Below, one piece after another: positions 19,263-21,770 of a stretch of 46,113 bases of DNA. The DNA lies in the IMG/VR virus record IMGVR_UViG_3300017903_000263, positions 1 through 46,113 of that record. One strand, 5' to 3'. This DNA is from a virus (Duplodnaviria; Caudoviricetes). Both the position numbers and the translations under genes were made by a program. Numbering within the stretch: position 1 is the stretch's first letter; each line of letters starts with the position of its first letter. The notes beneath the pieces were generated by a model. It saw only the letters and a program-made list of their open reading frames with translations, did not search any database and had not been told where the DNA came from.

Positions 19263-19670
19263 TTATTTGACTTCGTATGTGGTTCGTTTCATATGGTCTG
19301 GAATAATTTTCTCTAAACTAATGATCAACAGACCGTCATTAAATGCTACGTCCACAACTCGAACATCGTCAGCGAGTTGCCAAGATTCTGTAAATGATCT
19401 TCGGGACAATCCTTTGTGCAAGTATTCAACTTTAGGATCTGTTCCTGCAGTCTTGGTGGCAACTCGGAGAAGGTTTGATTCAGTAGATACTTCAATCTCC
19501 TCTCTTTTAAATCCTGCGAGAGCGATTTGAATTTCGTAATTACTGGAGTCATGTTTGATTAGGTTATACGGAGGATAGTTCTTGTTGTGACTTGTCATTG
19601 AGTCAAGTCTGTGGAACATATCACTCAGACCTACAGCGTGGGGCAAATAGATATCCCAAGTATTTGTCAT
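19263..19670 (-). CDS. hsp20: Small heat shock protein
   Basis: NYPPYNL, IALAGF, YLHKGLSRRSF, DGLLII alpha-crystallin motifs. Confidence 0.95.
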   Translation of the reverse strand: MTNTWDIYLPHAVGLSDMFHRLDSMTSHNKNYPPYNLIKHDSSNYEIQIALAGFKREEIEVSTESNLLRVATKTAGTDPKVEYLHKGLSRRSFTESWQLADDVRVVDVAFNDGLLIISLEKIIPDHMKRTTYEVK

Positions 19671-19746: not shown

Positions 19747-19780
19747 AAAAAAAGTGATGTGGTATAAACCGCATCACTTT
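19747..19780 (-). terminator. Rho-independent terminator downstream of regA
   Basis: AAAGTGATGCGG-TTTATA-CCACATCACTTT followed by further Ts. Confidence 0.85.
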
Positions 19781-19822
19781 GTAGGGTGTTCCGACTTTCG
19801 TAGAGACCGCACGAAAGGTCTC
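19747..19822 (-). ncRNA. Candidate small late ncRNA with H-type pseudoknot
   Basis: Late promoter ATAAATA (19828-19834), then GAGACC-TTTCGT-GC-GGTCTC-T-ACGAAA, then a terminator; no ORF inside. Confidence 0.55.
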
Positions 19823-19827
19823 GCTAT

Positions 19828-19834
19828 TATTTAT
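19828..19834 (-). promoter_or_regulatory. T4-like late promoter ATAAATA
   Basis: Overlaps the regA stop codon; only the pseudoknot and terminator lie downstream. Confidence 0.6.
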
Positions 19835-20250
19835 GCCTCAGGTTTCTTTCTACCAATGTTGTATTTTGATTCCAATGTCCATTCTCCCTTATCCTTATAG
19901 GAGAGAACTTTAATTTGGTTGAGGGGTGCAACGTCTTCGATCTGAGACTTATCAACAATAGAAATAAGACCCCAATCAGAAAGAAGTTGAGCGATTCTGT
20001 TACGGCGTTGGACATCATTTAATGACAGGTTAGTGTTTTTTCCATCCAGAGCAAACAACTCTTTGAAGTGAACGATGTAATATTTGCCTTGTTTATGGAG
20101 AATATGACATGACTGATATAGCTTTCTATCACGTCTAGATGCAACACCGATACGAGTGAGAGTTTCACGTACCTTCAGAAAGTCGTCGGGTTCATTCAGA
20201 ACCACTTCAACCATATCTGCTGGTTGCCATTGAATTTCAGTTTCAGTCAT
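19831..20250 (-). CDS. regA: Translational repressor RegA
   Basis: DDFLKVRETLTRIGVAS, LYQSCHILHKQGKYYIVHFKELFALDG. Confidence 0.96.
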   Translation of the reverse strand: MTETEIQWQPADMVEVVLNEPDDFLKVRETLTRIGVASRRDRKLYQSCHILHKQGKYYIVHFKELFALDGKNTNLSLNDVQRRNRIAQLLSDWGLISIVDKSQIEDVAPLNQIKVLSYKDKGEWTLESKYNIGRKKPEA

Positions 20251-20634: not shown

Positions 20635-20775
20635 TTAAAATTTTGCAGTCACACCGATAACTTTAGCATTAGGGTTACGTGCCAGGGCAACCTCTCTTGC
20701 CTCCTGGTAGTCGCGAGCATAAACCTCCTCAGCGAAGACCTTGCCAGCAACATAGAGTTTCACTTCACACTTCAT
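20635..20775 (-). CDS. Small hypothetical protein (46 aa), not in the ORF track
   Basis: MKCEVKLYVAGKVFAEEVYARDYQEAREVALARNPNAKVIGVTAKF*; fills the dam-gp62 gap. Confidence 0.7.
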   Translation of the reverse strand: MKCEVKLYVAGKVFAEEVYARDYQEAREVALARNPNAKVIGVTAKF

Positions 20776-21616
20776 AGTTGGTTAGGACGAGTTCCTTGCG
20801 AGACGCTTGATCTGTATTATAACTCCCCACGCTCCTCATGGTGTAAGTGTGTGCAAATTCTGCAGCTGTCCACCCCTCAAAGCGATCTCGGATCAGTTGC
20901 GACGAATTGTAACTAATAAGTTGAGGACTGATAAAACGATCACACTTGATAGCAAAATGATCGTGGTTAAATCCTTTGTGCATGTCACCTCTACGACCAT
21001 ATAGGTTGGATCCAATTTCGTAGGGGGGATCAAGGTAGATGAAGGTCTGCTTGTGATCGCTAAGGAGTTGTTCATAAGACATATTAGTAATTTTCCAGTT
21101 ACCAATCAATGCTTGGTAATCAGTCAGTTTCTCAATACCATTCAGCGAGAAGTTGCTGTCACTTGCTTGCTTGGAGAAAGATGATGACTCAGTGAGACCT
21201 GAAAAACTGCACTTATTGACAACGTAAAAAGACACAGCACGCCAAATGTCCTCATTGTATGGAGGAAACTTGGTGCTAGTCTGAGATCCAGCGAGGTAAT
21301 CCTTCGCATCCAGAAATAGACTCTTGGCACTGGTTGGATCTGGATGTCGCTGCTTGAGTTGAAGGAGGATGTTCTTAAGATCATGTCCGTTATCCTGTAG
21401 AACTCGCCAGAAATTATATAGAGGTTCATACAGATCGTTGACCCAGATATTGAGACGTGGGTAACGCTTAGTAACTTCCAATGCTACAGAACCACCGCCC
21501 AGAAAGGGTTCGTGGTAGTCAGTATATCCTGACAAATCAGGAATGTATTGGAAGAGTTTACTCAGGGCACGACTCTTCCCCCCTGGATAGCGAAGGGGAG
21601 TCTTCAGGGATTTCAT
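20765..21616 (-). CDS. dam: DNA adenine methyltransferase (D12 class, Dam-like)
   Basis: PLRYPGGKS, EPFLGGGS, NDL and DPPY catalytic motif; start at MKSLKT. Confidence 0.92.
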   Translation of the reverse strand: MKSLKTPLRYPGGKSRALSKLFQYIPDLSGYTDYHEPFLGGGSVALEVTKRYPRLNIWVNDLYEPLYNFWRVLQDNGHDLKNILLQLKQRHPDPTSAKSLFLDAKDYLAGSQTSTKFPPYNEDIWRAVSFYVVNKCSFSGLTESSSFSKQASDSNFSLNGIEKLTDYQALIGNWKITNMSYEQLLSDHKQTFIYLDPPYEIGSNLYGRRGDMHKGFNHDHFAIKCDRFISPQLISYNSSQLIRDRFEGWTAAEFAHTYTMRSVGSYNTDQASRKELVLTNYEV

Positions 21617-21770
21617 AGTCTGGGGCATTGTACTTCAAGTATTCACGAAAGATGTGCTTCATTTCACGCTCGGTCATTCCACAATGAGCGGCGGCAGCAG
21701 GAAGGTTCATTGTAGCACGAAACAAACCATCATTTGCTTCCGCCACATTTTCAGGCGTCGTCTTCTTCAA
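21558..21770 (-). CDS. Small hypothetical protein, HTH-like
   Basis: TTPENVAEAN...MNLPAAAAHCGMTEREMK; TTG start inferred; 3' end overlaps dam. Confidence 0.6.
   Translation of the reverse strand: MKKTTPENVAEANDGLFRATMNLPAAAAHCGMTEREMKHIFREYLKYNAPDYEIPEDSPSLSRGEESCPE

Follow-up and report, generated by a model that had tools for sequence, protein, structure and literature searches.

According to our analysis, a conserved and uncatalogued cyanophage gene likely encodes a late RNA of 76 bases, the least variable bases of which are predicted to pair with the core of the host 23S rRNA. The gene lies between regA and hsp20 in the window, as we call the whole analyzed stretch of 46,113 nucleotides. 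The window is a fragment of a T4-like cyanomyovirus: its RegA is 100% identical to that of Synechococcus phage Sf-CH11, which is annotated as a translation repressor, and its regA-hsp20 spacer has 98.4% identity to the same phage. An earlier note on this DNA had described a stand-alone late RNA with an H-type pseudoknot, but overlooked the main feature: both conserved blocks of the element are complementary to helix 71 of the host 23S rRNA. It is highly probable that the element is a discrete RNA, and its pairing with 23S rRNA, as predicted from complementarity, appears almost as probable.

Anatomy of the Small-RNA Gene

All parts of the gene lie on the minus strand. As previously noted, a late promoter overlaps the regA stop: the T4-late motif TAAATA (19833-19828) takes its first three bases from the TAA stop codon of the translational repressor gene regA (19831..20250), the upstream neighbor of the element. 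Transcription by the late sigma factor would start at G19822, the predicted +1. The series GAGACC-TTTCGT-GC-GGTCTC-T-ACGAAAG, reported to begin 5 nt after the promoter, was confirmed on this strand. Within the predicted 76-nt small RNA (19747..19822; homologues measure 55-79 nt from promoter to U run), stem P1 (GAGACC/GGTCTC) and its loop occupy 19803..19822. The loop carries the seed TTCGTGC (19809..19815), the complement of 23S positions 1964-1970 and, together with its flanks (19818-19807), of 1962-1973. CTAC and an A-rich linker (19796..19804), containing the non-conserved ACGAAA, are looped out of the predicted hybrid, and the 3' block GTCGGAAC with the tail ACCC (19784..19795) complements 1954-1961 (block) and 1948-1951 (tail). 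An intrinsic-terminator-like hairpin with a U run (19780-19747) was recognized by folding; it is bulged and was missing from a simple terminator scan. The minus strand between regA and hsp20 holds no ORF of at least 50 aa, in agreement with the earlier description. The claim that hsp20 (19263..19670 on the minus strand, from the ORF list and annotation) has its own promoter past the terminator is also upheld, since a second TAAATA (19736-19731), likely the hsp20 promoter, is located 5 nt ahead of the G that starts the hsp20 leader.

Folding of a 173-nt region gave a z-score of -3.38, and none of 200 shuffles was equally stable. The folding energies of the plus and minus strands (-29.7 and -26.2 kcal/mol) do not decide the strand; it was assigned because the promoter, the U run and the G-U pairs point to the minus strand. 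With its own promoter and terminator at the motif level, no ORF, and an exposed conserved seed complementary to a target encoded elsewhere, the element shares these sequence features with trans-encoded base-pairing sRNAs.

Conservation and Genomic Location

As a single-copy unit, the T4-late promoter motif, covarying hairpin and terminator recur in hundreds of cyanomyovirus records, and the location varies among several unrelated loci. A promoter-plus-loop pattern matched an estimated 1600 or so IMG/VR stretches, chance matches included. With the promoter left out of the pattern, 60 of 120 matches were true elements, as judged by eye from the hairpin and the 3' block; TAAATA preceded 59 of these and TATATA one, and none of the 60 chance matches had the promoter motif. 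With the loop left out, TTCGTGCG was present in 119 of 120 matches. A U run was found in 55 of 58 hairpin-plus-promoter matches, and two of the three exceptions end at contig edges. P1 can be formed by 187 of 193 unique promoter-to-tail sequences, in 23 variants (one a mis-call) with many double-sided changes. In 156 of these 187, TAAATA and the first G of P1 are separated by 5 nt; the gap is 4 nt in 25 and 3 nt in 6.

Among cultured phages, 234 records, many of them near-identical isolates, contain the element, each in one place, and nine further records contain a divergent type. The earlier proposal of a discrete late phage sRNA is thus supported by the promoter in elements found without searching for it, the varied loci and the single copy per genome. 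At 122 loci (two of them outside the family), the upstream gene was regA in 77, psbA in 2, hsp20 in 2, another gene in 37 and a contig edge in 4; by eye, four of the 37 were gp32-like and about ten had porin-like C-termini. In P-HM2 the element sits after gp32. Downstream, hsp20 was found at 65 of the 122 loci and varied genes at the others. An element specific to regA was rejected, as it directly follows the stop in only 6 of 80 regA loci. At five loci (L032, L040, L045, L002 and L082), an additional structured insert of ~45 nt, with a purine-rich arm, a C run and TACGCC, lies between the promoter and the hsp20 leader; the four of these that were scanned (L032, L045, L002, L082) had no Rfam match.

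These locations bear on a cis-acting alternative, in which the element rides the upstream mRNA as a 3'-UTR past the stop codon and captures 50S subunits released at termination or recycling. The upstream stop is the TAA of the promoter motif in 111 of 187 sequences and lies 3-24 nt earlier in 36, as would suit such an element. In addition, one RNA-library contig, identical to the window, spans regA into the element (19787-19969), so that read-through exists, unless the contig is DNA. Part of the region is present in eleven RNA-labelled runs from 5 studies, and among 6 runs examined, element-variant contigs were found in X1, X4, X5 and X9, as contigs alone, which carry no information on ends, strand or level. 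Depth peaks over the element in such contigs were rejected as evidence of expression, as they sum the copies of many phages. The upstream genes are unrelated, however, and loci whose stop codon lies apart from TAAATA retain the motif, with a constant spacing to the conserved first G. We therefore consider an exclusively cis-acting element improbable, but both modes, cis action and a free late RNA, can coexist.

The element is accessory rather than core. It was found in 4 of 15 hand-picked cyanophage genomes (S-SM2, Syn19, P-HM2 and S-B43), three of which had been picked from earlier matches, and was not found in S-PM2, Syn9, P-SSM2 and eight others. Neither the pattern nor the model detected it in five non-cyanophage T4-like genomes (T4, Melnitz, HTVC008M, Mosig and DLP6); the single pattern match in T4 resembles chance, the controls having given two. 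The strict model filters may miss weak homologues, so these absences mean "not found." A search of phages lacking the element for a substitute anti-23S RNA gave an 11-nt helix-69 motif only at the chance level and five promoter-plus-3'-block matches, none of them convincing.

Structure of the RNA and Comparison With Type III Antitoxins

Of the two stems that the earlier note proposed to examine for covariation in related phages, stem 1 (P1) shows it through its double-sided changes, and stem 2 is not conserved. The downstream partner of the loop, ACGAAA, is present in 24 of 187 homologues. In an alignment of 37 sequences (from 39 cluster representatives, after removal of a family-2 row and a chance row, with the window in place of L001), pairing in the stem 2 helix reaches 66.5%, and 6 sequences retain its C-G pair. 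As drawn, moreover, loop 1 has 0 nt and loop 3 has 1 nt, and loops of this length are insufficient in pseudoknot geometry to cross two 6-bp stems. The geometry is classical in an alternative cis helix, UUUCG/CGGAA, for which pairing in the same alignment is 96%.

The alternative helix is what speaks for a self-folded pseudoknot serving as a protein decoy, either a mimic of a type III antitoxin or a ligand of RegA, with an incidental match to rRNA. We regard this as very improbable. The helix shows no double-sided change and has a U-G pair in 36 of 37 sequences, both bases of which form Watson-Crick pairs with 23S rRNA; it may be an idle fold. The decoy would also leave unexplained the invariant UGC, the GU ahead of CGGAA, and the tails. 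Type III antitoxin RNAs (ToxI, AntiQ, abiF motif) resemble the element in being short structured RNAs in phages for which a pseudoknot can be drawn. In contrast to them, the element occurs as a single copy with no repeat array, both in the 234 records and in the window (one intergenic copy), has no toxin endoribonuclease gene directly downstream, where hsp20 is the commonest neighbor, lacks a conserved H-type pseudoknot, and has no Rfam match. Because stem 2 fails, the copy is single and about a third of copies do not adjoin regA, the earlier suggestions of a type III mimic, a RegA ligand and an H-type pseudoknot are all unsupported.

The Rfam check, antitoxin models included, gave no family at the gathering level in the window; the best sub-threshold match of the region was LhrC, with 27.1 bits where the cut-off is 110. 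Nor did any Rfam family, antitoxin, riboswitch and Yfr models included, match the phage copy, one host copy or family 2. A hammerhead-type core was sought by eye in the looped-out segment and rejected as absent.

Complementarity to 23S rRNA

A single uninterrupted stretch of host 23S rRNA (E. coli positions 1948-1973), comprising helix 71, which we take to be 1945-1961, and its 3' flank, is complementary to the loop seed UUCGUGC together with the downstream GUCGGAAC-ACCC. In the annotated E. coli rrlH, 1954-1961 is the partner of the 3' block and 1962-1970 that of the loop, the two sites being adjacent on the rRNA. The Rfam-confirmed 23S rRNAs of Synechococcus RCC307 and Prochlorococcus MIT 9302 contain the site, with C1963 and A1971 in RCC307 and Prochlorococcus. 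With this cyanobacterial site, the window copy reaches 24 Watson-Crick pairs between 1948 and 1973; A1952-A1953 form a bulge, and 11 nt of the small RNA loop out. The predicted binding energy after opening both partners is -19.4 kcal/mol.

Across a 2446-nt stretch of 23S rRNA, this region was the best duplex site for 108 of 122 unique elements and for none of 93 dinucleotide shuffles; several of the 14 misses are copies of the S-SM2 type, whose pairing is weaker (-25 to -29 kcal/mol). There were 45 different 3' tails, which the search patterns did not fix; they gave -10.0 kcal/mol against 1946-1958, compared with -7.4 for shuffled tails, and none of 200 shuffled controls was as good; the tails pair in several different registers, and their sequences are related. 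When the two blocks were joined with a gap of 0-4 nt, 108 of 151 host-family genomes were matched at 1-3 sites each (2 for the reversed control), with the same rRNA 17-mer in all but three of the rows listed. In 87 of the 151, a profile built from the elements also located the 23S site, with a weak match.

Pairing was also counted position by position in the 122 unique elements. On the loop side, 121-122 elements pair at 1963-1970, a range largely fixed by the pattern, 103 at 1962, 104 at 1971, where 18 are mismatched, 121 at 1972 and 112 at 1973. On the side of the 3' block, all 122 pair at the pattern-fixed 1955-1958, 119 at 1959, 109 at 1960, 82 at 1961 and 102 at 1954. Pairing is kept through G-U where C changes to U opposite G1954 (13 of 122 elements) and where A changes to G opposite U1956 (one host copy). 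Since the elements are related, these counts represent non-independent events, and, as the 23S target is nearly universal, little true trans-covariation is visible.

A match to rRNA could also stem from a functionless captured fragment of antisense rDNA, or the element could have a target other than 23S rRNA. On the one hand, rRNA is abundant and phages acquire host DNA, and the duplex-energy comparison covered 23S rRNA, not a whole host transcriptome. On the other hand, the match is split by an insert of 11-12 nt, P1 covaries, and neither the promoter spacing nor the terminator is lost between genera or loci; the matches of the joined pattern and of the profile to host genomes are almost all to 23S rRNA and true homologues. 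The probability of either origin is accordingly put very low.

The obligatory part of the seed could be narrowed. A search with A after the seed returned 121 rows, comprising 70 family-1 copies, 11 family-2 copies and 40 chance rows. In the 70 family-1 copies, the A closes P1 (U-A replacing C-G or U-G) but mismatches the cyanobacterial C1963, from which the obligatory seed is the 7-nt UUCGUGC (1964-1970). P1 is probably kept within the modeled hybrid. The unpaired junction shifts among variants over 1960-1963 and lies opposite A1960 in family 2. One IMG/VR viral contig (L603/L604) has two matches to the A-variant pattern ~2.3 kb apart, as against one copy per cultured genome. A short contig of a Synechococcus MAG (L520, G005:C1) carries the non-cyanobacterial 23S allele U1963/U1971 and is likely contamination.

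A Second Family in an Uncultured T4-Like Clade

A second family, represented by 26 of 28 rows, has a different fold, consisting of a promoter, a GAUAC stem around a large loop, and a terminator, and lies shortly downstream of gp23 in the loci examined. It has A opposite both U1963 and U1971 of the E. coli type, although only the U1963 position was in the pattern. Its predicted pairing is stronger with E. coli 23S rRNA (-25 to -29 kcal/mol) than with that of Synechococcus (-16 to -20 kcal/mol), and for all 12 unique variants the best site in E. coli 23S rRNA is at the same place as for family 1. The family-2 capsid is closest to Melnitz, HTVC008M and Mosig, and it falls into one group with capsids of SAR11, OM43 and Stenotrophomonas phages, separate from those of cyanophages (95/97). 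Such a pattern would suggest tuning to the rRNA allele of the host, counted as one event. A wider search for the family gave mostly noise (3 of 120 rows real). A psbA gene was not found in five family-2 contigs, which has little weight as they are 25-52% complete.

The late-promoter RNAs of this family (L830, L833 and L825-L851), from an uncultured T4-like clade near the SAR11/OM43 phages, are antisense to 1955-1973 of E. coli-type 23S rRNA. In the L830 locus, a glutamine riboswitch lies after gp23, ~200 nt upstream of the family-2 RNA.

Copies in Host Genomes

A clear copy of the element was found in 19 of 401 host-family genomes, and one more by profile; the other 25 matching genomes resemble chance. 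The twenty carriers are genomes of Prochlorococcus type; one is Prochlorococcus MIT 1012 (G004), and the others are 1.4-1.9 Mb in size. The host copies are near-perfect. Their seed, 3' block, tail and terminator are retained and the late promoter is missing; pairing with 23S rRNA is predicted at -39 to -44 kcal/mol (14 copies). They lie among small ORFs near a Cyano-1 (Yfr2-family) RNA. All 13 host copies inspected have ATG-TGA just upstream, an arrangement that, together with the missing late promoter, favors the cis-acting 3'-UTR alternative. Prochlorococcus ncRNAs are reported to be concentrated in islands, with some of them responding to phage (PMC2518516); the main text of that paper does not contain the word rRNA.

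Upstream of host copies (L876:1493-1600 on the minus strand, L874-L886 and L893), the conserved ATG-TGA is preceded by a hairpin whose loop resembles CTCACAC and which includes a Shine-Dalgarno-like stretch; the hairpin and the ATG-TGA could load a ribosome beside the anti-23S module. A 1.4-Mb host genome (G376; C15, C27) has three host-type pattern matches, two of which are a variant ~3.3 kb apart.

Predicted Mode of Action

We propose, at slightly less than even probability, that the late small RNA pairs with 23S rRNA at 1948-1973, opens helix 71, and blocks the maturation or joining of 50S subunits. The 7-nt loop would make first contact with 1964-1970 while P1 is kept, and the 3' block would then displace the 5' strand of helix 71 (1948-1961), which a hybrid of 20-24 bp must replace, leaving about 1960-1963 as a flexible junction. 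In the expected topology, the loop helix would stack on P1, and the linker (CUAC and the A-rich part) would run back along P1 to the 3' arm, with 1962-1963 at the junction. In the 70S ribosome, the helix 71 region is folded and faces the small subunit, so that only pre-50S particles or free 50S subunits would be accessible. The target would therefore be unassembled or free, and maturation or joining to 30S would be blocked late in infection. The phage could gain by halting the production of new ribosomes and passing idle rRNA to turnover, while translating ribosomes still make virions. A published account describes H71 as joining H68/69 to the peptidyl transferase center and helping to fold H90-93, which mature last (PMC11260487). 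A counterpoint to inhibition is that the phage needs ribosomes late, and the retention of near-perfect copies by hosts is not predicted for a purely toxic RNA.

The same pairing may instead be protective or constructive: the RNA could shield or splint the helix 70-71 region against host defense nucleases that cut rRNA, chaperone or store 50S subunits, or guide modification at 1962-1963, with P1 and CUAC as a protein platform. The two arms flank a junction adjoining C1962, which is m5C in E. coli, and conservation extends to the CU(A/U/G)C that follows P1, which does not pair with the target; host retention of a copy points the same way. Since RNase III requires longer helices, the short helices formed with P1 kept (7 and 8-12 bp) would also be a poor substrate for it. 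However, a guide implies a fixed target base, whereas the unpaired junction moves; no fixed partner gene adjoins the element, and the pairing itself must open helix 71, which is at odds with protection. We consider such a role unlikely, though with a real share of the probability.

Returning to inhibition, a broader and somewhat more tentative scenario would be that T4-like phages of cyanobacteria and other marine bacteria deploy anti-ribosome RNAs that invade helix 71, are tuned to the host allele, and cut the late supply of 50S subunits, and that some Prochlorococcus have domesticated such an RNA as a regulator of their own ribosomes.

Relation to Known RNAs and Implications

We found no description in the open-access literature of this RNA, or of a viral RNA pairing with the functional core of bacterial rRNA. 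Large screens for structured viral RNAs exist, and their candidate lists could contain this motif without a function. In CopA/CopT and RNA I/RNA II, a hairpin-loop seed starts the pairing, which then extends; these RNAs are cis-encoded and target an mRNA or a primer RNA, whereas the element is trans-encoded, viral and matched to rRNA. Eukaryal and archaeal snoRNA guides and pre-rRNA chaperones (H/ACA, C/D) pair with rRNA near functional centers, and, like the element, place two arms around a few unpaired target bases. Unlike them, the element has no C/D or H/ACA boxes in its conserved columns (the best sub-threshold Rfam snoRNA match is 18.5 bits), a different topology, a bacterial host and no identified partner protein. 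The rancRNAs, small RNAs that act directly on ribosomes, are encoded by the cell and mostly processed fragments; the element is viral, and its association with ribosomes is a prediction.

The nearest precedent is sRNA2 of Pseudomonas phage PAK_P3, an abundant late intergenic RNA with an 11-nt match to host tRNA T-loops, by which it is proposed to influence translation (PMC4933390). Both are late intergenic small RNAs of lytic phages proposed to act on translation. The element differs in its target, 23S rRNA, paired over 20-24 bp in two arms, and in its hundreds of homologues, covarying stem and second family. S-CREM1 has an abiF RNA (PMC9964418), and the element was not found in the S-CREM1 genome.

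If this reading is true, a viral grip on host ribosomal subunits by RNA would be a new way of controlling a host. Provided that the pairing is real, RNA is a means by which phages control ribosomes, nature has selected helix 71 as an antisense target, and what becomes of host ribosomes when ocean cyanobacteria are infected can be tested directly. The element occurs in cultured phages with cultured hosts, namely P-HM2 (on MED4), S-SM2, Syn19, S-B43, S-RIM2 and S-RIM8, and the relatives without it, S-PM2, Syn9 and P-SSM2, are natural controls. E. coli has both the 7-nt seed site and the site at 1954-1961 unchanged, which makes a test there simple.

Other Features of the Window

The hsp20 leader (19725-19670, minus strand) contains a GGATGCC hairpin followed by a hairpin over the Shine-Dalgarno sequence, and is kept in most regA-hsp20 loci. 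Its weak match to ROSE_3 in Rfam (20.3 bits, cut-off 43) makes it a candidate RNA thermometer. Between the clamp-loader genes gp44 and gp62, an ORF at 20765-21628 on the minus strand encodes a Dam-like DNA adenine methylase with a DPPY motif, as named from its sequence.
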